In this document: piece after piece, positions 1 to 11,968 of the stretch
Layout of the letters: the number at the start of each line of letters is the position of its first letter
How positions within the stretch are numbered: the stretch's first letter is position 1
Assembly: GCA_965660445.1 (NCBI GenBank)
Contig: CBFIAK010000001.1
Location: forward strand, 64,001-128,000
Origin: Patescibacteria group bacterium
Lineage (GTDB): Bacteria > Patescibacteriota > Gracilibacteria > UBA4473
Direction: 5' to 3'
Length of the DNA stretch: 64,000 nucleotides
Program-made: the position numbers and the translations under genes
Notes under the pieces: generated by a model
What the model was told of the DNA's origin: nothing
Seen by the model: the letters and a program-made list of their open reading frames with translations, nothing else
Databases searched by the model: none

Positions 1-24
1 TTTCTCTTTAAGCCTTGTTATGTG
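1..24 (-). repeat. Partial attC-like site of cassette 2 (continues beyond the left window edge)
   Basis: Minus strand reads CACATAAC-AAGG at 24->13. It has the same AAC-AAGG start as the complete site at 730->719 and is complementary to GTTATGTG (654->647) that opens this cassette. Confidence 0.7.
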
Positions 25-91
25 GTTTTTCTGCAAGAAAAACTGCTGGAGAAAATCTTTGATTTTCGTAAGCACAGTATGACGGAGGACA

Positions 92-589
92 CTATCTACT
101 AGAATAAAAATCCTGTATTTCTTTCCAACTTCCATCAATCTTTTTTGCTAAAGAGTATCTTGAGATTCTATCTTTTCGACTAATTAATTCTTTTGAAGTT
201 CTATCAAATTGTGAAGATGATTTTGAAATTGTTAAATGTGGATTATAATTATCTTCAAAATATTGTTTTGCGATTACATCAAATTCTGAATCAGCATAAT
301 TTCTTACAACAGAAACAATTCCTTTATGCAATTGCAAAAGCTCATCAGAACGAGATAATTTTAACACTAAAGAATCTTTATCAAAATCATCGAAACCTAA
401 AGTTTCAAATTCAAAAGGATTAAAACTAATTTGAGAAAAATCAGTAACCAATTTATTTTCATGTTTAGGTTTCATATAGAAAAAACAAAGTGTAGAATGT
501 AAACCAGAACTTGGTAGAACTAAATTATTTTGTCTCGAAATTAAATTGGACAATTCTTCGTTTGGTCGAAAATAAGCAAGATACTTCAT
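92..589 (-). CDS. 2H phosphoesterase / 2'-5' RNA ligase family protein (cassette 2 gene)
   Basis: 165 aa with two HxT motifs (LHSTL, NPHLTI) about 85 aa apart. Confidence 0.75.
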   Translation of the reverse strand: MKYLAYFRPNEELSNLISRQNNLVLPSSGLHSTLCFFYMKPKHENKLVTDFSQISFNPFEFETLGFDDFDKDSLVLKLSRSDELLQLHKGIVSVVRNYADSEFDVIAKQYFEDNYNPHLTISKSSSQFDRTSKELISRKDRISRYSLAKKIDGSWKEIQDFYSSR

Positions 590-646
590 AAATTAAGGAA
601 AGAAATACAGTAATATAAATATTTGGATAGTGTTCGAGTAATATTG

Positions 647-730
647 CACATAACATCAGGATTTAACAAAGTTCGCGGAGCGAATTTGGGAAATTCCTGC
701 AAGGAATTTCTGTTAAATCCTTGTTAAATG
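647..730 (-). repeat. attC-like recombination site of cassette 1
   Basis: Minus strand reads CATTTAAC (RYYYAAC) A AGGATTTAACA ... TGTTAAATCCT GAT GTTATGTG. It forms an 11-bp perfect stem with two internal hairpins and lies 60 bp after the stop codon of the preceding gene. Confidence 0.75.
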
Positions 731-790
731 AGGGTGAGCGAAGCGAAAGGCTGCAAGCCGTCCCCGACTGACTGCAAGGAAGGAGAGTTT

Positions 791-1297
791 CTACAAACAA
801 ACGTCATCAGTCAAGAGAATTTGCTTTTTACCAAGAATATGTTTTAAACTATCAATTGCCGAATCATGATTATTTTTCCCATGTAAAGAATTACAAGCAT
901 CTTCAATTACAAAAGTTTCAATATTATTATCAAATAAATCCATCGCAGTTTTGATAATACAAACATCCGTGTAAATCCCAGTAAGATAAATTTTTGTAAT
1001 TTTATTAGTTTTAATGAATTCTTTTAATTCATTATTTAATACAGTATAAGTATTATGCTGAATGTTTATATTGTCTGATGTTTGTAATTCGGAAAATAGT
1101 TTTTGATCTTCTTTATTTTGAAATTTAGTCCAACTTAATTGTTTTTCAAATAAAGATTTTCCATCATTAACAAATGTTGGAAAAACTATTTTTCCATTAA
1201 ATGATTCTTTCAATTTTAAAAGATTCGGCAATATATTCTCAGATTCTTGGTATCTAAAACCTTCTTGCATATCAATTATTAAAAGCAAATTCTCCAT
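791..1297 (-). CDS. Isochorismatase-family cysteine hydrolase (cassette 1 gene)
   Basis: LLIIDMQEGF N-terminal Asp motif, GIYTDVCI catalytic Cys motif and IEDAC. Start taken at MENLL. Confidence 0.85.
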   Translation of the reverse strand: MENLLLIIDMQEGFRYQESENILPNLLKLKESFNGKIVFPTFVNDGKSLFEKQLSWTKFQNKEDQKLFSELQTSDNINIQHNTYTVLNNELKEFIKTNKITKIYLTGIYTDVCIIKTAMDLFDNNIETFVIEDACNSLHGKNNHDSAIDSLKHILGKKQILLTDDVCL

Positions 1298-1347
1298 AAT
1301 ATAAAACATAAATTACTTTGTATATAAAAGTTTGTTTGTAGAAATTT

Positions 1348-1372
1348 CATTTAACTCGTTTTTATCCAACCT
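1348..1372 (-). promoter_or_regulatory. attI-like site (first cassette boundary)
   Basis: Minus strand GGATAAAAACGA-GTTAAATG lies about 75 bp from the divergent integrase start. It resembles the attI1 simple site (TAAAACAAA-GTTRRRY). GTTAAATGA is the exact complement of TCATTTAAC ending cassette 1. Confidence 0.55.
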
Positions 1373-1431
1373 TTGTATTTCAAATATAGCAATTTCTTGT
1401 ATGTTATGCAAACTTTTATTATTCTTTGGAT

Positions 1432-2244
1432 ATGGAAAATATTTTGGACAAAACCGAACGAGTTTGGAAATTGAGAAACTACTCCCCAAAAACTCGCAAA
1501 GCATATCTGTTCTACATAAGAGAGTATATCAGTTTTTCTAAAGGAAAAGGAATTAAAGATAAACAAAAAGCGATTGAAGATTTTTTGCTTGATAAATACA
1601 ATCGTAAACAATCTCCGCAAACAGTTAATCTGGCACTCAATGCGGTAAAATTTCTGTACGCGGAAGTTTTGAAAGATCCACAAAAGATTGACTTGAAGTT
1701 TGCGAAGAGAGACAAGAAATTACCCATTGTTTTGTCTCATGCAGAAATTAAAGAAATTATCCAGGCGACTGAAAATGCAAAATACAAACTCATGATTTCG
1801 CTTGGCTATGCTTGCGGTCTGCGTGTGAGTGAAGTTATAAATCTACGTGTTGCAGATTTGGATATTGATGAACTCGTCGTACATATCAAAGGAGCAAAGG
1901 GGAAAAAAGACAGAATCAGTGTTTTGCCAGAAAAATTACAAAATGATTTGCGAAATATCATTGCAGGCAAAAGTAATAATGATTTTATCTTTGCCTCTAA
2001 TCGAGGAGGAAAACTCACAACAACGTCTTTACAAAAAATGTTCCGCAAAAGTTTAGCCAATACGAACATAAGAAAACCCGCTACCTTTCACTCATTGCGT
2101 CATTCATTCGCCACGCATTTACTCGAAAATGGAACCGATGTGAGATATGTGCAAGAACTGCTTGGGCATTCCAACATCCGCACCACACAAGTGTATACGC
2201 AAGTAACAAATCCAAAGTTAAAGAACATAAAAAGCCCTTTATAA
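1432..2244 (+). CDS. Tyrosine recombinase, integron-integrase-like (SAM-like N-terminal domain, no IntI-specific insertion)
   Basis: N-terminal RNYSPKTRKAY. Catalytic motifs GLRVSE, KGKKDR, HSLRHSFATHLL and LLGH...TTQVY. Divergent from the cassette genes. Confidence 0.9.
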   Translation: MENILDKTERVWKLRNYSPKTRKAYLFYIREYISFSKGKGIKDKQKAIEDFLLDKYNRKQSPQTVNLALNAVKFLYAEVLKDPQKIDLKFAKRDKKLPIVLSHAEIKEIIQATENAKYKLMISLGYACGLRVSEVINLRVADLDIDELVVHIKGAKGKKDRISVLPEKLQNDLRNIIAGKSNNDFIFASNRGGKLTTTSLQKMFRKSLANTNIRKPATFHSLRHSFATHLLENGTDVRYVQELLGHSNIRTTQVYTQVTNPKLKNIKSPL

Positions 2245-2402: not shown

Positions 2403-2493
2403 TGGCGGAGAGAGAGGGATTCGAACCCTCGGTTCCGGAAAACGGAACACACGCTTTCCAAGCGTGCGCATTCGACCACTCTGCCATCTCTCC
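2403..2493 (-). tRNA. tRNA-Ser(GGA)
   Basis: GGAGAGA acceptor stem, CACGC-TTGGAAA-GCGTG anticodon arm, long variable arm, GGTTCGAATCC T-arm and encoded CCA. Confidence 0.97.
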
Positions 2494-3818: not shown

Positions 3819-6800
3819 ATGGTTGCCGTACAAAAATTCAATTTTCCAGCAAAACTTTCTCCTGTAAAAAAAGAAGGAGAACGATATTTTTTCACGTCTG
3901 ATATCGGAGATGGGTTTGAGTTCCCAGATCTTATTCAAGTACAAACCAATTCTTATGACTGGTTTTTAGGAGAAGGACTTCAAGAACTCATTGATTCTAT
4001 AAATCCTATTGAAGACGCAACAGGAAAAAAACTAAAACTAGAAATAAAAAGTTACGACATTGAACCTCCTAAATACGATTTAGATACGTGTCATAAAAAA
4101 GGATTGTCATATGAATCAATCATTCGAGCACAAGTAGCGCTCACCAATCTTGAAACTGGAGAAATCAAGGAACAAGAAGTTTATTTTGGACAAATTCCAC
4201 AAATAACAGATCAAGGAACATTTATTATTAATGGGATTGAACGGATTATTGTTTCTCAAATTGTACGAAGCCCTGGAGCGTTTTTTGCAGAAATGCAAAA
4301 CATGCCAAATGCATTTACAGCAAAACTGATTCCAAAACGAGGAGCATGGATTGAAATTGAAACTGACAAAAGAGGTCTTATTTGGGTGAAAGTCGACCGA
4401 AAACGAAAAATACCAGTGACCATGTTTTTGCGAACATTCGGGTATGATACGGATAAAAAAATTCTAGACTTGTTTAAAAATGAAACAAAAGGACTCACTG
4501 AAAACCCAATTTTAAAAACACTTGAGAAAGACGAAGCAACAACTGAAAAAGAAGCATGGCAAGGAGTTTATAAACGAATTCGTCCAGGAGATTTAGCAAC
4601 ACCTGAAAACGCTAAAGTGTTTTTAGATGATATGTTTTTAAATTTTCGAAAATACGATTTAGGACCTATTGCGCGATACAAAATCAATAAAAAGTTTGAT
4701 TTAAAAACGCCAAACACTCCAGAAGGCCGCACTTTTCAATTAGAAGACTTTATTGAAATGGTACGTGAAATTATACGACTCAATAACGGATCAGGACAAG
4801 GTCCTGACGATATTGATCATTTAGCGAATCGACGTATCCGAGGGGTAGGAGAACTCGTACAAAACAAGTTTCGAATCGGATTGCTTCGAACAGAACGTAT
4901 TATTCGAGACCGAATGTCTATTGTCGATCTCGAAACCGTGACTCCAACTCAAATTGTAAACTGCAGACCAATCACAGCTGCAATGCATGAGTTCTTTGCA
5001 TCTGCACAACTTTCGCAATTCATGGATCAAACAAATCCTTTAGCCGAACTTGAACACAAACGACGAATTTCAGCTATGGGTCCAGGGGGGCTTTCACGAG
5101 AACGAGCATCATTTGAAGTACGTGACGTACACCCATCTCAATACGGGCGTATTTGTCCGGTCACAACACCAGAAGGTCCGAATATCGGACTCGTATTACA
5201 CTTAGCATCGTATGCAAAAGTGAATGAATATGGGTTTTTAGAAACTCCATATCGAACAGTCTCTCATGTAATTGCAAATGATGGAACTGCTGTCATAGGA
5301 CGAAGAGTAAAAGAAGAAATCCTTGATGGAAAAAAAGTTATTATCTCAAAAGACCAAATCTGCACAAAAGAACAAGCAGAAGCCATCAAGAAAATAAAAG
5401 ACAAAAAAGAAATTAAAGTACAGGCTTATATCACAGATGAAGTACAATATTATGACCCAGATGCTGAACGAAAAATGTGTATTGCACAAGCGAACACCAT
5501 TTTAAACGACAGAGGAGAATTTACGAAAAGTTTTATTTCTGCTCGTAAAAACTATGAACCTGGAACCTATGATGAATCGATGGTGACACATATTGATATT
5601 TCTCCAAAACAGATTGTGTCTCTTTCTACATCACTTATTTCATTCCTTGAACACGACGACAATACTCGTGCATTGATGGGATCAAACATGCAACGACAAG
5701 CAGTTCCTCTTATTATGCCAGATTCCCCTATTGTTGGAACAGGAATGGAAAAGATCACATCACGAGACCAATGTATTCGAGCTGAAGAAGATGGAGAAAT
5801 TAAGTATGCTGATGCGAATGAAATCGTATTTGTCAGCAAATCAGGAAAAAAGAAAACATATTCACTCAAAACATTTTATCGATCAAACCAATCGACTTGT
5901 ATCACACAGAAAACAAAAGTAGTGAGTAAACAAAAAGTAAAAAAAGGTGATGTCTTAGCTGATGGAGCTTCTGTAGAAAACGGAGAGCTTGCCATTGGGC
6001 AAAACTTGATCGTTGCGTACATGTCATGGAGTGGGTACAACTACGAAGATGCGATTATTATTTCTGAACGGTTAGTAAAAGAAGGGTCATACAATTCTAT
6101 TCATATTGAAAAATATGAACTCGATGTTCGTGACACAAAACTTGGGCCCGAAGAACTCACTGCAGACATTCCAAACGTAGCAGCCGCAAAACTCAAAGAC
6201 TTAGACGAAAATGGATTGGTTCGTATTGGATCAACGGTTCTGGCAGGAGATATTCTTGCCGGAAAAGTGACTCCGAAAGGAGAAAGTGAATTAACCGCTG
6301 AAGATCGATTATTAAGAGCTATTTTTGGAGAAAAAGCAAACGATGTAAAAGATTCTTCTCTTCGGCTTCCACGAGGATCTGGAGGGAAAGTGATTGACGT
6401 AAATATACTTGATCGATCACAAGGTGACGATTTACCAAATGGAGTATTGAAACGAATTCAGATTTTAGTAGCACAGCTACGACATTTAGAAGCAGGAGAC
6501 AAAATGGCAGGACGACACGGGAACAAAGGAGTTATTTCTCGAGTTGTACCAATTGAAGATATGCCACATATGGAAGACGGAACGCCAGTTGATATTATTC
6601 TTAATCCTCTTGGGGTATCGTCTCGTATGAACATTGGACAAATTCTCGAAACACATTTAGGAATGGCAGCCTATAAGATGGGTATAAAAGTAGCAACTCC
6701 AGTACTGAATGGAATCTCGTTAGACAAAATACAAGAGTTCCTCAAAGCAAACAATTTACCGGAAGACGGAAAGTTCCAACTCTATGACGGACGAAGTGGA

Positions 6801-7466
6801 GAAGCGTTTAAAAACCGAACAGTGGTAGGGATTGCCTATATGGTAAAATTAAGTCACTTGGTGGAAGACAAAATGCATGCTCGGTCTGTTGGACCATACT
6901 CATTAGTAACCCAACAACCGTTTGGAGGGAAAGCACAAAACGGAGGTCAGCGGTTAGGAGAAATGGAAGTTTGGGCACTCGAAGCATACGGAGCAGCACA
7001 CACACTTCAAGAAATGTTAACTATCAAATCCGATGATGTACATGGGCGAGGAAAAGCGTATGAAGCAATTGTAAAAGGTGAACCAATCGAACTTATTTCT
7101 ATTCCTGAATCGTTCAACGTGCTTATTAAAGAGCTTCAAGCATTAGGACTCAAAGTAGAACTCTTAAAAGACGGACAAGAAGTAAACGATAAGATTATTC
7201 AGTCACTTGATCCAAAAGAAGACCAGAAACGACAAGAGTATGAAAACGAAAAACTCAAATCTGAAAAAAGTTTATTAGAAGAATCAGAAGATTTTCAAGA
7301 AGTAGCCGATGAAGACGATGTTATCGCTCATGAAGCAGGACTCGGAATTTCATTAAGTGATGAAGAAACGGGAGTCGATGACGATGACGATGACGATGAC
7401 GATCGCCCACAAGATGAGAATGAAGATGGATTTGACGATGACGACGATATTCGAGAAGACAACTAA
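3819..7466 (+). CDS. rpoB: DNA-directed RNA polymerase subunit beta
   Basis: Conserved motifs SQFMDQTNPL, TPEGPNIGL, GDKMAGRHGNKG and GGQRLGEMEVWALEAYG. Acidic C-terminal tail. Confidence 0.99.
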   Translation: MVAVQKFNFPAKLSPVKKEGERYFFTSDIGDGFEFPDLIQVQTNSYDWFLGEGLQELIDSINPIEDATGKKLKLEIKSYDIEPPKYDLDTCHKKGLSYESIIRAQVALTNLETGEIKEQEVYFGQIPQITDQGTFIINGIERIIVSQIVRSPGAFFAEMQNMPNAFTAKLIPKRGAWIEIETDKRGLIWVKVDRKRKIPVTMFLRTFGYDTDKKILDLFKNETKGLTENPILKTLEKDEATTEKEAWQGVYKRIRPGDLATPENAKVFLDDMFLNFRKYDLGPIARYKINKKFDLKTPNTPEGRTFQLEDFIEMVREIIRLNNGSGQGPDDIDHLANRRIRGVGELVQNKFRIGLLRTERIIRDRMSIVDLETVTPTQIVNCRPITAAMHEFFASAQLSQFMDQTNPLAELEHKRRISAMGPGGLSRERASFEVRDVHPSQYGRICPVTTPEGPNIGLVLHLASYAKVNEYGFLETPYRTVSHVIANDGTAVIGRRVKEEILDGKKVIISKDQICTKEQAEAIKKIKDKKEIKVQAYITDEVQYYDPDAERKMCIAQANTILNDRGEFTKSFISARKNYEPGTYDESMVTHIDISPKQIVSLSTSLISFLEHDDNTRALMGSNMQRQAVPLIMPDSPIVGTGMEKITSRDQCIRAEEDGEIKYADANEIVFVSKSGKKKTYSLKTFYRSNQSTCITQKTKVVSKQKVKKGDVLADGASVENGELAIGQNLIVAYMSWSGYNYEDAIIISERLVKEGSYNSIHIEKYELDVRDTKLGPEELTADIPNVAAAKLKDLDENGLVRIGSTVLAGDILAGKVTPKGESELTAEDRLLRAIFGEKANDVKDSSLRLPRGSGGKVIDVNILDRSQGDDLPNGVLKRIQILVAQLRHLEAGDKMAGRHGNKGVISRVVPIEDMPHMEDGTPVDIILNPLGVSSRMNIGQILETHLGMAAYKMGIKVATPVLNGISLDKIQEFLKANNLPEDGKFQLYDGRSGEAFKNRTVVGIAYMVKLSHLVEDKMHARSVGPYSLVTQQPFGGKAQNGGQRLGEMEVWALEAYGAAHTLQEMLTIKSDDVHGRGKAYEAIVKGEPIELISIPESFNVLIKELQALGLKVELLKDGQEVNDKIIQSLDPKEDQKRQEYENEKLKSEKSLLEESEDFQEVADEDDVIAHEAGLGISLSDEETGVDDDDDDDDDRPQDENEDGFDDDDDIREDN

Positions 7467-9233: not shown

Positions 9234-9506
9234 CAAAAATTGACAAAATATTTTACAGAAAAATATACAATTATTATCAATATTCAAATTAGGGAAGCAC
9301 AGGAGCGCTAAGGCGCTCGAATTCAGAATCTTGAATCTGGAATCTTGGTAAAATTACAGGAATCACAAAAAAATCACAAGGCTGTGCAAAATCTTGTGAT
9401 TTTTTCCATAATTCATAATTCTTAATTCACAATTCCAATATGAGCGAATGAATTCCTATACAAAGGAAGGGGGTATATGGGGGAAACCTTTGGTTTCAAC
9501 CCATAA

Positions 9507-9890
9507 TCAAAGTTCCCCCCCCGAATCCACATTCCCTGCCCCAAGCAATGTATTAGCAATAGCAAACGAGAGAAGTATTACAAGGATCCCTAAAGCCGCA
9601 TAAAGGAGTATTTTTTTCGGTTTATCAGTGTCATCACCGGCCGCCACAATATACAATACGCCTCCGTAAATAAACATAACCACGGCTATAAGCCCAACAA
9701 ATGATAAAACATAGTTTATAATAGTGAGGACTCCTTCTCGAAAACTCCCATCATAACTGGTTGATTGTTGAATAGCTTGTGGGTTATCTGTTGAACGAAC
9801 CATTCCTCTGTTTTGTGCAAGAGCCACAGAAGGTGCTATAAACACTGATCCACAAAACAAAAAAGCCAAAGCCAAAACAAATTTTTTCAT
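9507..9890 (-). CDS. VirB2/TrbC-like pilin (CPR type)
   Basis: Signal peptide (ALA) and two TM helices linked by YGG..YI.A.GDD..K.KK.L.YA..G. Paralog at 29881-30297. Confidence 0.75.
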   Translation of the reverse strand: MKKFVLALAFLFCGSVFIAPSVALAQNRGMVRSTDNPQAIQQSTSYDGSFREGVLTIINYVLSFVGLIAVVMFIYGGVLYIVAAGDDTDKPKKILLYAALGILVILLSFAIANTLLGAGNVDSGGEL

Positions 9891-9946
9891 AAGAGTCACT
9901 ATAATTTCGGTTGAATTTTAATTGTATTTCCGAAAAAATACAATTA

Positions 9947-11968
9947 ATGGATCTCTCTTTTCCGCTTGAGAATATTCTCAAGACAACAACAGCTCATATA
10001 AAGAAACTCAAAAAAATAGGCATTCATACTCTGGGTGACTTATTGCAATACATGCCGAGAACTATTGAGTCGACCGAACTGATTACTGATTTTAATGATA
10101 TTCAGTTTGGAGTAAAAAATTCACTGTCTGGAACGCTCTGTGATATACGAAAAGAACGCACTCCTCGTGGGAAAACACTTACCAAAGCTGCATTCGTACT
10201 GCCCAATGGGGCAACCCTTGATGTCATTTGGTTTCAAACCCCCTACATACTCCGAACTATACAAGACGAAACACACGTATTTCTCGTTGGAAAAGTCAAC
10301 CGACAATACGGAAAAATTCAAATACAGAACCCTGAAGTCCATATAAAAGACACGATTCATGTTGGGAAACTTCGAGCGGTATATCCCGAATCTCCTCCAC
10401 TGACTTCAAAATGGTTTCGTGAAAAAATAGCAGGCGTTCTTCTCTACACAAAAAAATTTCCCGATATTATTCCATCTCATATCCGAGAATCTGAAAACCT
10501 CCTCTCAAAACCAGAAGCCCTTACCTGTATTCACAATCCTGACTCTACCGAACAATGGAATCTTGCTCGACGCACACTCGCGTTTGAGGAACTTCTTATT
10601 CTTCAGTCTCGGGTACTGCAACGAAAGAAACAGTACCAAAATGACCAAAAAAGCAAATACCGTATTCCATTCAATCCAGAAGAAATAAAGAAAGATTTTC
10701 AGATTATTCCGTTTGAACTCACTAATGGACAAAAGAAATGTTTACTCGATATACTCAAAGATTTTGAACGATCTCAACGAGCCCATCGACTGCTCCAAGG
10801 CGATGTCGGAAGCGGAAAAACCATTATTGCGTTTTTAGCCATGCTTCAGATTATAAAACAAGGCGGACAAGCAGCGCTCGTTGCACCAACAGAAATTCTT
10901 GCAAAACAACATTTTAAAAATGCCTTACAATTTTTTCCAACACAGTATCGAACTGAACTTTTGACAGGATCGGTAACGGAAAAAGAAAAATCTCGTATAA
11001 AAACTCAATTACGAACAGGTCAAATTCAAGTTCTAATTGGTACCCATGCTTTGTTTACTCCTGACACTGAGTTCAAAGACCTTGGTATTGCTGTTATTGA
11101 TGAACAACACCGATTTGGTGTAAAACAACGTGCTGTATTGGGACAAACCAATGCGCATGTGCTTTCCATGACAGCAACGCCAATCCCTCGAACACTTGCA
11201 CTCACTATTTACGGAGACCAAGACATTTCTCAAATCACAGAACTCCCCCCCGGAAGAAAACCCGTTATTACTCGTATTGTTAGTGACCAAAAGACACAAA
11301 CACTGTGTTATCGATTTATAGAAGACCAGATGGTCAAAGAGAAACAAATATTTTGGGTTTGTCCTCTTATTGATGAATCTGATGCCATTGAAGCAAAAAA
11401 TGTAAAAGCACAGTATGAACATATTGCAAAAGATCTCTACCCTGCACGACGAGTAGAGTTATTACATGGCAAGATGAAACCAAAAGAAAAAGATGCTATC
11501 ATGACTCGGTTTAAGAACAAAGAGTTTGATATTTTGGTATCGACATCGGTTATTGAAGTAGGAGTCGATATTCCCAACGCAACTATTATGGTTATTGAAA
11601 ACTCAGAACGGTTCGGGCTATCTCAACTTCATCAGTTTCGAGGACGTATTGGAAGAAACGATCGGCAGTGTTATTGTTTTTTAATGGTTGGCAAACAAGA
11701 AGACAAACACAAAGAACGCCTTCGTGCTCTGGAGAAAACCACTGATGGACTGAAGCTCGCTGAAATAGATTTGAAACTGCGTGGTATGGGAGAAATATAC
11801 GGCACACGACAATCGGGACTGCCACAATTTAAATGCGCAGACATCAGTGATGTTGCTTTGCTTCAATTAACCCGAGACTACGCACTTTCTCTGATAGAAG
11901 ATGACTCTTCTCTACAATCGCATCCATACTTAAAAAAAGCAGTAGAAGAAGAAAGCATAGAACTCTAG
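9947..11968 (+). CDS. recG: ATP-dependent DNA helicase RecG
   Basis: RLLQGDVGSGKT, APTEILAKQH, IDEQHRFGV, MTATPIPRTL and ERFGLSQLHQFRGR motifs. Confidence 0.97.
   Translation: MDLSFPLENILKTTTAHIKKLKKIGIHTLGDLLQYMPRTIESTELITDFNDIQFGVKNSLSGTLCDIRKERTPRGKTLTKAAFVLPNGATLDVIWFQTPYILRTIQDETHVFLVGKVNRQYGKIQIQNPEVHIKDTIHVGKLRAVYPESPPLTSKWFREKIAGVLLYTKKFPDIIPSHIRESENLLSKPEALTCIHNPDSTEQWNLARRTLAFEELLILQSRVLQRKKQYQNDQKSKYRIPFNPEEIKKDFQIIPFELTNGQKKCLLDILKDFERSQRAHRLLQGDVGSGKTIIAFLAMLQIIKQGGQAALVAPTEILAKQHFKNALQFFPTQYRTELLTGSVTEKEKSRIKTQLRTGQIQVLIGTHALFTPDTEFKDLGIAVIDEQHRFGVKQRAVLGQTNAHVLSMTATPIPRTLALTIYGDQDISQITELPPGRKPVITRIVSDQKTQTLCYRFIEDQMVKEKQIFWVCPLIDESDAIEAKNVKAQYEHIAKDLYPARRVELLHGKMKPKEKDAIMTRFKNKEFDILVSTSVIEVGVDIPNATIMVIENSERFGLSQLHQFRGRIGRNDRQCYCFLMVGKQEDKHKERLRALEKTTDGLKLAEIDLKLRGMGEIYGTRQSGLPQFKCADISDVALLQLTRDYALSLIEDDSSLQSHPYLKKAVEEESIEL

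Follow-up and report, generated by a model that had tools for sequence, protein, structure and literature searches.

A short IntI-like recombinase lacking the IntI insertion adjoins a two-unit cassette array in a Patescibacteria genome: a probable non-canonical integron-like platform

Integrons are defined, and detected by software, through the IntI-specific domain of their integrase. The locus described here lies at the left end of a 64,000-nucleotide (nt) window (positions 64,001 to 128,000 of contig CBFIAK010000001.1, assembly GCA_965660445.1; G000:C1:64001-128000 in our numbering) from a Patescibacteria group bacterium with a genome of 991,330 bp in five contigs and 36-40% G+C; the DNA left of the window on the same contig was also read. 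A tyrosine recombinase gene on the plus strand (1426-2244) has upstream of it, in divergent orientation, two single-gene units that are co-oriented on the minus strand. A first-pass annotation, made from the letters alone, had taken this arrangement for an integron-like cassette array of a non-canonical class in a genome resembling ones from the candidate phyla radiation (CPR), and the comparative evidence (arrays, covariation and a cassette signature in relatives) backs that interpretation. We consider the locus likely to be a non-canonical kind of integron-like platform, small and carried on the chromosome, that is run by an IntI-related recombinase without the insertion. The comparisons establish its anatomy, its association with a family of sites, the covariation of those sites and a signature of circular permutation.

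The two units provide the first part of the evidence (Table 1). Cassette 1 starts with GTTAAATGA (1355->1347) and the site that closes it, W1, starts with an R'' box, TCATTTAAC (731->723), that is the exact reverse complement of the cassette start (9/9, and 6/6 of the positions scored below). Unit 2 starts with GTTATGTG (654->647), its downstream site W2 starts with CACATAAC (24->17), and the cassette start GTTATGTGC agrees with its own R'' CCACATAAC at 5/6 scored positions. All four core positions had been given by the first-pass annotation and were found correct on re-reading, as were the open reading frames (ORFs), and the minus-strand sequence of both units bears out its description of two co-oriented single-gene units with cores that match within each unit. 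The R'' of W1 ends TTTAAC, and the forked top of the site carries the motifs CCAAATT and AACTT, which recur in related sites. Folded as single-stranded DNA, W1 reaches -20.9 kcal/mol with a z score of -6.96, and none of 200 shuffles did as well.

Sites of the same type adjoin homologous integrases in G019, G026, G029, L048 (a Peregrinibacteria metagenome-assembled genome, MAG) and L053, always upstream and divergent, which answers the concern, raised when the locus was first annotated, that integrase homologues might prove to have no such repeats. Three cassettes of this kind follow one another in G029, and in G019 the conserved box next to the integrase ends AAAAACGA / GTTAGGCGA (the slash marks the boundary), followed by one ORF and then by a site starting TCGCCTAAC. 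The plan of these sites, which are about 90 nt long, is an R'' box (nnnnnTAAC), a 1-nt spacer, an 11-bp stem, a loop, the returning stem, a 3-4 nt AAAC-like bulge and an R' box (GTTRnnnn). The stem is free in sequence and specific to each site, with a semi-conserved TATGCGG part. Common to the sites are the two loop motifs, a 4-nt bulge (AAAC, GGAC or GAAC) before GTT and, in all of them, a 3-nt length asymmetry adjoining R'. Read by eye, the junction between R box and stem is asymmetric (1 x 3-4 nt) and there are no bulged bases within the perfect 11-bp stem. The cassettes end as integron cassettes do, in imperfect inverted repeats with RYYYAAC...GTTRRRY cores in which structure is kept over sequence, W2 being a decayed example.

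A covariance model (R1), for which five sites from G019, G026 and G029 only were used and W1 was left out, finds W1 at an E value of 4.1e-4 when both strands of 295,628 bases are searched, as well as two sites in L048 and one in L053. With R1 and a further model, R2, there are nine non-redundant matches in CPR-type loci, and every one of them is upstream of the integrase, on the strand opposite to it. When the nine sites are aligned, pairing in the 11-bp helix reaches 99%, with compensatory changes at 10 of its 11 pairs, compared with 22-45% pairing in a control in which the partner was slid by 1-3 columns; the alignment was fitted to the model and so favours the structure, a point to be set against the result. 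An Rfam scan (evalue mode) of the 20 kb with the array and of four related arrays returned no family for the sites or for a GAGGGGG element found in arrays; its sole significant match was a tRNA, and three others were far under their gathering scores.

Some irregular units were seen among these arrays. In G026 (L039:7500-8040 and 9400-10420) a site is split, with R'' and L'' after the first gene and L' and R' 430 nt further on, and a 133-amino-acid (aa) ORF sits inside its loop; two more units of that genome retain the 3' half-site only (ACATCAGATATnnGCGAAC / GTTA), with no partner arm. A non-coding element composed of a T-rich run, GAGGGGGnATAAGGnnTTTTCTCC, a small hairpin and CGAAAA occurs in cassette arrays of four CPR genomes, often in units starting GTTATnTGAAAT. 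The scan gave this element no Rfam match and the copies showed no covariation (0/7 pairs of GAGGGGG...TTTTCTC).

If cassettes once existed as circles cut at G/TT, the bases after a cassette's GTT should pair with the R'' of that same cassette and not with the R'' of the site that it touches. Scored over the six bases that follow GTT, 15 cassettes in 8 arrays agree with their own R'' at 83 of 90 positions. The mean for non-self pairs is 2.48 of 6, and none of 100,000 permutations came up to the observed total. With model coordinates only, the R' of one site and the R'' of the next agree at 41/48 positions, as against 54/114 for the R'' and R' of the same site. One weak pair, in L061, was 2.5 kb apart; the missing site that this predicted was then found by model R3 and fits both neighbours at 6/6, and L071 added two further consecutive pairs at 6/6, which brings the running total for consecutive sites to 62/66, against the same 54/114 within sites. 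The remaining weak pair (L048, 3/6) spans a truncated boundary whose R''-like 9-mer fits at 6/6. Chance is excluded as the source of these matches, and what had been read as an integron-cassette signature in the two units of the window holds across arrays.

The recombinase itself consists of a SAM-like core-binding domain (PF13495, 3e-15) and a catalytic domain (PF00589, 2e-43). Its best NCBIfam match is the integron integrase TIGR02249, in two stretches and at 226 bits, below the cut-off of 265; it also falls short of XerA (209.7 bits, cut-off 220), XerD (182.5, 329.6) and XerC (178.6, 335). Scoring under the TIGR02249 and XerA cut-offs, it would therefore not be called IntI by profile-based tools, as the first-pass annotation had expected. 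By sequence, the best match in the PDB is VchIntIA/IntI4 (2a3v, 4e-46), again in two stretches that skip chain residues ~211-241. An AlphaFold2 model (pLDDT, the predicted local distance difference test, 84.4) has no helix at the place of the IntI insertion, and Foldseek places it closest to 2a3v (TM-score TMq 0.72-0.73, 33% identity); XerA comes second both by PDB sequence and by structure.

The missing part can be located precisely. LPEKLQNDL runs to DFIFAS without an insert, as had been pointed out, and 58 residues separate the KxR and HxLRH motifs. That spacing is 56-62 residues (mostly 58) in 31 short homologues including this one and 100-101 in 9 long IntI-type proteins, the motif not having been found in 4 further sequences. 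The IntI-specific insertion of ~42 aa (the I2 region near patch III), by which membership of IntI is decided, is not present. R133, H222, R225, H248 and Y257 are invariant across 10 orthologues. Given the IntI-type best matches, the 58-residue spacing and the invariant catalytic residues, the protein is therefore IntI-like and insertion-less and looks catalytically intact.

Its affinity to XerA calls for consideration of a housekeeping role, namely that this is the chromosome-dimer-resolving Xer of a reduced genome, flanked by inverted repeats through chance. The XerA score is near its cut-off, XerA is the second-best structural match, and the protein shares with XerA, XerC, XerD and the Xer-related 'Cand' subgroup the build of a two-domain, 'simple' tyrosine recombinase of similar length. 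Its distribution is of another kind: the type occurs in only 10 of 40 relatives (39-82% identity over nearly full length), in a mobile context that is non-syntenic with G004, and it is tied to arrays of sites. A ~310-aa Xer-like type is found in most of the 40 and is represented in the present genome by a second tyrosine recombinase (C3:7171-7644; ORF of 316 aa, 38% identical to that of the window). The R1 match to W1, the permutations and the model-coordinate signature rule out chance for the repeats. We regard the dimer-resolution account as extremely improbable, and the identity of the protein as a housekeeping Xer was rejected on four counts: scores below all three Xer cut-offs, patchy occurrence, lack of synteny and the separate Xer-like gene.

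A quick maximum-likelihood tree built on 63 sequences groups the short proteins of CPR genomes in a clade of 17 with a support of 98 in the Shimodaira-Hasegawa-like approximate likelihood ratio test (SH-aLRT) and long IntI proteins in a clade of 10 with a support of 100; the ~310-aa Xer of CPR genomes stands apart from both. The G009 recombinase falls outside the clade of 17. The backbone that joins short CPR proteins, long IntI and short proteins of other origin (Bacteroidota, Firmicutes and DPANN archaea) is unsupported. In G034, a class-level relative and one of the 10 with the window's type, two different recombinase genes contain in-frame TGA codons (2 and 6; L015, L044), so that TGA is probably read as sense there.

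The tree bears on a further possibility, that the recombinase is a relic: a former integron integrase that has lost both its insertion and its activity and is left with fossil cassettes. That W2 is decayed, that the array is short and that a serine recombinase gene comes next, with its stop codon overlapping the R' of W2, would all be in keeping with this. The insertion-less form, however, makes up a clade of its own in this quick tree and is not scattered within the long IntI clade, the catalytic residues are invariant, arrays vary between close relatives, and contigs break at the attI-like site; we judge a dead relic improbable.

That attI-like site adjoins the integrase, and the first cassette starts there, as in integrons. 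Its conserved box ends AAAAACGA / GTT, that is with GA before GTT, 71 nt upstream of the integrase start codon. A proximal box, ATAnAAAnGA followed by GTT, occurs upstream of the orthologues in G004, G019, G026, G030, L045, L048, L049 and L053; the bases past the GTT differ between these loci, whose sequences diverge from that point. One or two distal TTCGnATAAnA repeats are also found in the attI regions of homologous loci. In the window the distal box overlaps a promoter-like match directed into the cassettes, which from its sequence is a candidate only for a Pc promoter; a scan with the consensus was weak, with 20 promoter-like matches in the region where 9.8 would be expected.

Comparison of close relatives suggests ongoing cassette turnover in the family, because arrays differ between them and contigs break at attI. 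The recombinases of the window and of G004 are 82% identical, and the sequence that the two loci have in common is confined to the gene and its attI region. Both flanks differ: those of G004 match C1:735-738 kb of the window's genome, and the first cassette of G004 is a restriction-modification operon. Among 19 homologues (that of the window excluded), a contig end lies within 600 bp upstream of the gene in 11 and within 600 bp downstream in 1, and the contigs of G035 and L047 end 5 nt past the attI GTT. Breaks at this position are what population-level variation of the first cassette would produce.

The stretch was also compared with the assembled contigs of four public runs, two of which (X2 and X3) contained 6% of the sampled words; absence of contig cover for a part was not counted as evidence. 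Contigs of the likely source run cover the whole stretch. A hydrothermal-vent run (105 matching contigs) and a brine run (97) match mainly the two site regions, the adjoining G+C-rich stretches and the cassette 1 gene, with little or no cover of the cassette 2 gene, of the serine recombinase or of the greater part of the integrase. The cassette 1 gene is ~87-90% identical in contigs of these two unrelated metagenomes (57 differences in 622 bases, for example), with neighbours that do not match. This pattern fits a repeated family of sites that would be attached to varying genes.

A plausible scenario is that the recombinase would exchange strands at the GTT core, that recombination of two sites would release the cassette as a circle, bringing the bases that follow GTT back to the site they came from, and that the circle would re-enter at attI. 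The stem covariation suggests, furthermore, that the site would be read as a fold, probably of single-stranded DNA, with a geometry other than the canonical one and with no I2 helix. Catalysis, crossover position and strandedness are what we infer here. A canonical attC site has an unpaired central spacer and extrahelical bases. The extra bases of the present sites are on the 3' arm of the coding strand, and if canonical attC is laid out in this way they would mirror those of attC, so that the opposite strand may be the reactive one.

There is an argument for a different use of the sites, in which the system would still be integron-like and the sites would act as double-stranded palindromic cores, with two-strand exchange in the style of Xer or Cre. 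The enzyme is without the domain that canonical IntI uses for the single-strand pathway. In the portions of the literature drawn on here, this IntI-specific domain is held to enable the use of folded single-stranded attC (PMC9024848, PMC9668308, PMC4792948) and is presented as the specialized domain of the single-strand pathway (PMC4792948), and the additional domain is given as a requirement of recombination at attC (Messier and Roy 2001, as cited in PMC9668308). As canonical IntI needs the domain that is missing, folded-site activity cannot be assumed here, which tells against our own interpretation. It is also the case that the complementary strand of W1 folds as well as the first (-22.2 and -20.9 kcal/mol) and that the loop motifs are conserved in sequence, as in protein-binding duplex sites. 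We think the duplex mode unlikely, while giving it appreciable weight. Our reasoning for this is that: (i) pairing of the 11-bp stem is kept while its sequence varies, as expected of a folded substrate; (ii) the conserved 3-nt asymmetry near R' is likewise expected of a folded substrate and has no obvious use in a duplex and (iii) the half-sites are separated by 60-350 nt in the duplex, more than a simple core site would allow.

The surroundings of the integrase gene suggest yet another explanation, that it belongs to a genomic island targeted to tRNA-Ser, in which case the genes would be cargo and the palindromes terminators or unrelated repeats. A tRNA-Ser lies 158 nt from the integrase stop codon with its 3' end convergent, the usual place for an island integrase, and this detracts from an integron-like reading, as do similar placements elsewhere: a tRNA-Ser at a distance of 32 nt in L045 and of 1.6 kb in G029, and a tmRNA at 425 nt in G019. 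In all, a tRNA-Ser (with three different anticodons) or a tmRNA faces the 3' end of the integrase in 4 of 18 loci (the window and 17 scanned). Also in the region are the large serine recombinase and, between ~40-bp direct repeats, a helicase gene, and the integrase-attI module is non-syntenic between G000 and G004, so it travels. On the other hand, no repeat of the tRNA-Ser 3' end of at least 12 nt was found in 20 kb leftward, a search that short att cores would escape, and the only nearby 12-mer repeat falls outside the tRNA. No arm-binding domain, which is the predictor of phage and integrative and conjugative element integrases (Smyshlyaev et al. 2021, PMC8138268, in the part drawn on here), was detected in the recombinase by a Pfam scan, which returned the SAM-like and catalytic domains only. 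The locus, moreover, has internal repeated recombination sites, and an island would leave unexplained the circular-permutation signature, the conserved attI box and a site family found only upstream; the same platform is apparently far from any tRNA in G004, G026 and L048. The alternative of a tRNA-Ser attachment site had been mentioned in the first-pass annotation, and the adjacency proved real and recurrent while no tRNA-derived repeat was found. An island explanation of the locus as a whole seems to us improbable. The recurring neighbourhood suggests that the platform inserts at, or travels with, tRNA-Ser and tmRNA genes, and it may be carried by a tRNA-targeting element or serve as one itself, in which case the roles of integron and island could coexist. 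Delimiting an island by synteny gave no result: among 25 relatives the 342-aa neighbour of the tRNA-Ser has no close orthologue, its best match being 32% identical over half of the protein.

Several results, in addition to the model-fitted alignment and the missing domain, weigh against an integron-like platform or at least against a vigorous one in this genome. The first-pass annotation proposed extending the contig leftward for further cassette units and had named their absence as evidence against its own claim; neither reading of the sequence left of W2 nor an nhmmer scan of the 991-kb genome gave a third unit. That scan took a profile of nine sites over the whole genome and both strands and recovered two sites only, W1 at E 3e-7, which is in the profile, and W2 at E 9e-4, which is not; the genome therefore has two units and no more. 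A crude stem search of the same genome was noisy (32 matches in the shuffled genome), and a search of it with R2 had no match even though W1 is among the sites of that model, this route being too insensitive. As for W2, the core was at 24->17 as first described, and most of the site proved to lie left of the window (it reaches from window base 25 to 73 nt beyond the left edge), with both ends resembling W1 in sequence, its arms unpaired (fold z +0.36) and a weak score in R2 (22.1 bits, E 0.1). With a short array of two units and a decayed distal site, the array in this genome may be only weakly active. Elsewhere, the models have no match in four homologous loci with at least 1.5 kb upstream of the gene (G004, G030, G006 and G034). 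Finally, no excision circle, empty attI or altered cassette order was seen in assembled contigs, in which the joints belong to other organisms and their sides are short, at 25-32 nt; contig cover is not evidence on excision because contigs cannot show rare forms.

Models R2 and R3 also match loci outside the CPR that encode insertion-less relatives, 33-42% identical to the recombinase of the window (Table 1). Such relatives, with similar arrays, occur in Flavobacteriaceae, in a Firmicutes MAG and in a Spirochaetota MAG, and the cassette signatures of the non-CPR arrays are perfect. An insertion of ~45 aa is present, judging by match length, in 21 of the 80 loci taken; neither R2 nor R3 has a match in any of these 21 long-IntI loci, whose flanks were not checked for attC arrays. 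Across the related arrays, cassette ORFs encode Fic, nucleotidyltransferase, NERD nuclease, methyltransferase, DinB-family and PF00144 proteins, and 9 of 20 have no Pfam match. One cassette of L061 (14122-15618) encodes a 499-aa PF00144 protein, a serine hydrolase like beta-lactamases and penicillin-binding proteins.

These loci can be placed next to known systems. In integrons, as represented by Vibrio cholerae (IntIA with its VCR sites, 2a3v), we find the nearest relative of the window's recombinase by sequence and fold, and the CPR loci have the same divergent integrase, adjoining attI-like site and cassettes, for the most part co-oriented and with one gene or a few each, ending in imperfect palindromes with AAC...GTT cores and the own-R'' signature and carrying mixed, often unassigned cargo. 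They differ in lacking the ~42-aa insertion, in scoring under the curated IntI cut-off and in the build of the site, with its 1-nt versus 3-4-nt junction, perfect 11-bp stem and conserved loop motifs. Integrons of the Treponema or Spirochaetes type have an integrase co-oriented with the array and a canonical IntI with the insertion; the arrays of L061 and L071, downstream of the integrase and on the same strand, resemble them in layout, whereas their IntI has the insertion and the arrangement in the window is divergent.

Taken broadly, the insertion-less IntI-like recombinases could constitute a second, previously undescribed class of integrons with a differently built folded site, extending over CPR, Flavobacteriaceae (cultured strains included), Firmicutes and Spirochaetota. 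This is a tentative proposal, on which we come down, narrowly, on the doubting side. If it is true, cassette capture at hairpin sites works without I2 and may predate the I2 domain, and these loci may be the closest living model of a proto-integron. It would also mean that current surveys miss gene-capture platforms in CPR, Bacteroidota and Firmicutes, for which integrons have been reported to be rare or absent, that one way in which genes come and go in very small symbiotic genomes is accounted for, and that there is a direct experimental handle on the origin of the single-strand pathway, with Flavobacteriaceae bacterium S0862 and Winogradskyella ursingii HL4150 as cultured hosts for testing. 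There is some precedent in Smyshlyaev et al. 2021 (PMC8138268), who describe the insertion as 'not fully conserved' in an integron-like subgroup and place the candidate-phyla 'Cand' recombinases with Xer; in the passages concerned, neither remark is tied to cassette arrays. We found no published account of cassette arrays with insertion-less IntI-like recombinases in the open-access literature, supplements aside.

Table 1. Features of the locus and of related loci (window coordinates unless a contig or locus is named)
Feature	Position	Strand	Details
Short IntI-like tyrosine recombinase	1426..2244	+	272 aa from TTG 1426; likelier start ATG 1432
attI-like junction	1347..1370	-	Reads GTTGGATAAAAACGA / GTTAAATGA; conserved left half abuts cassette 1's own bases
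Distal attI box	1383..1412	-	TTTGCATAACATAC; overlaps promoter-like TTTGCA, 18 nt, TG-TATATT pointing into cassettes
Cassette 1 unit	654..1354	-	From TTAAATGA... to G of following GTT
Cassette 1 gene	791..1309	-	Isochorismatase-family cysteine hydrolase, 172 aa; PF00857 1.5e-28
G+C-rich stretch	732..790	-	Lies between the stop codon of cassette 1 and R''; contains triloop hairpins (CTTGCAG)
attC-like site W1	643..731	-	R'' TCATTTAAC, 11-12 bp L stem, forked top, 3-nt bulge (GAT), R' GTTATGTG
Cassette 2 unit, part in window	1..653	-	Extends 62 nt beyond base 1, to G at C1:63938
Cassette 2 gene	92..589	-	2H phosphoesterase / 2'-5' RNA ligase superfamily, 165 aa; PF13563 2.7e-9
Decayed attC-like site W2	1..25 (R'' end); whole L002:17927-18025 = C1:63927-64025	-	R' GTTAAAAC
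tRNA-Ser(GGA)	2403..2493	-	ARAGORN; 3' end faces 3' end of integrase gene, 158 nt between (convergent)
Large serine recombinase gene	left of window	opposite to W2	424 aa; stop codon overlaps W2 R'
tRNA-Ser or tmRNA facing integrase	window 2403-2493; L045:1421-1511; L036:4644-5045; L040:4005-4094		
Non-coding array element, copies	L035:6321-6421; L038:6727-6827; L040:7805-7895; L048:5721-5806; L048:7216-7290		
Three long sites, Firmicutes MAG	L055, upstream of recombinase gene		R2/R3
Four sites, Flavobacteriaceae bacterium S0862	L061, downstream of gene	same as gene	R2/R3
Three sites, Winogradskyella ursingii HL4150	L071, downstream of gene	same as gene	R2/R3
One site each	L057; L060; L065		R2/R3

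A few further observations concern the window and its left flank. The cassette 2 gene scores 28.6 bits with TIGR02258, under the cut-off of 65.7. CTGCAAG/CTTGCAG triloop hairpins stand between the stop codon and the R'' of each cassette and also within the loops of both sites (window 25-45, 693-706, 750-761 and 768-785); contigs of the two other metagenomes cover these stretches heavily. Left of the serine recombinase is a 900-aa superfamily 1 (SF1) helicase-like gene, followed by ordinary genes. The helicase-like gene is flanked by a ~40-bp direct repeat, 94% identical between copies and with a GAGACAC...GTGTCTC hairpin (L002:13469-13507 and L002:16548-16587, window -4532..-4494 and -1453..-1414); in the likely source run the repeat forms a node at about twice the depth of its neighbours, where several contigs join. 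Gene and repeats together may be a separate mobile unit. At window 3819-7466, finally, an RpoB homologue of 1215 aa has a long acidic C-terminal tail that includes a run of nine aspartates.

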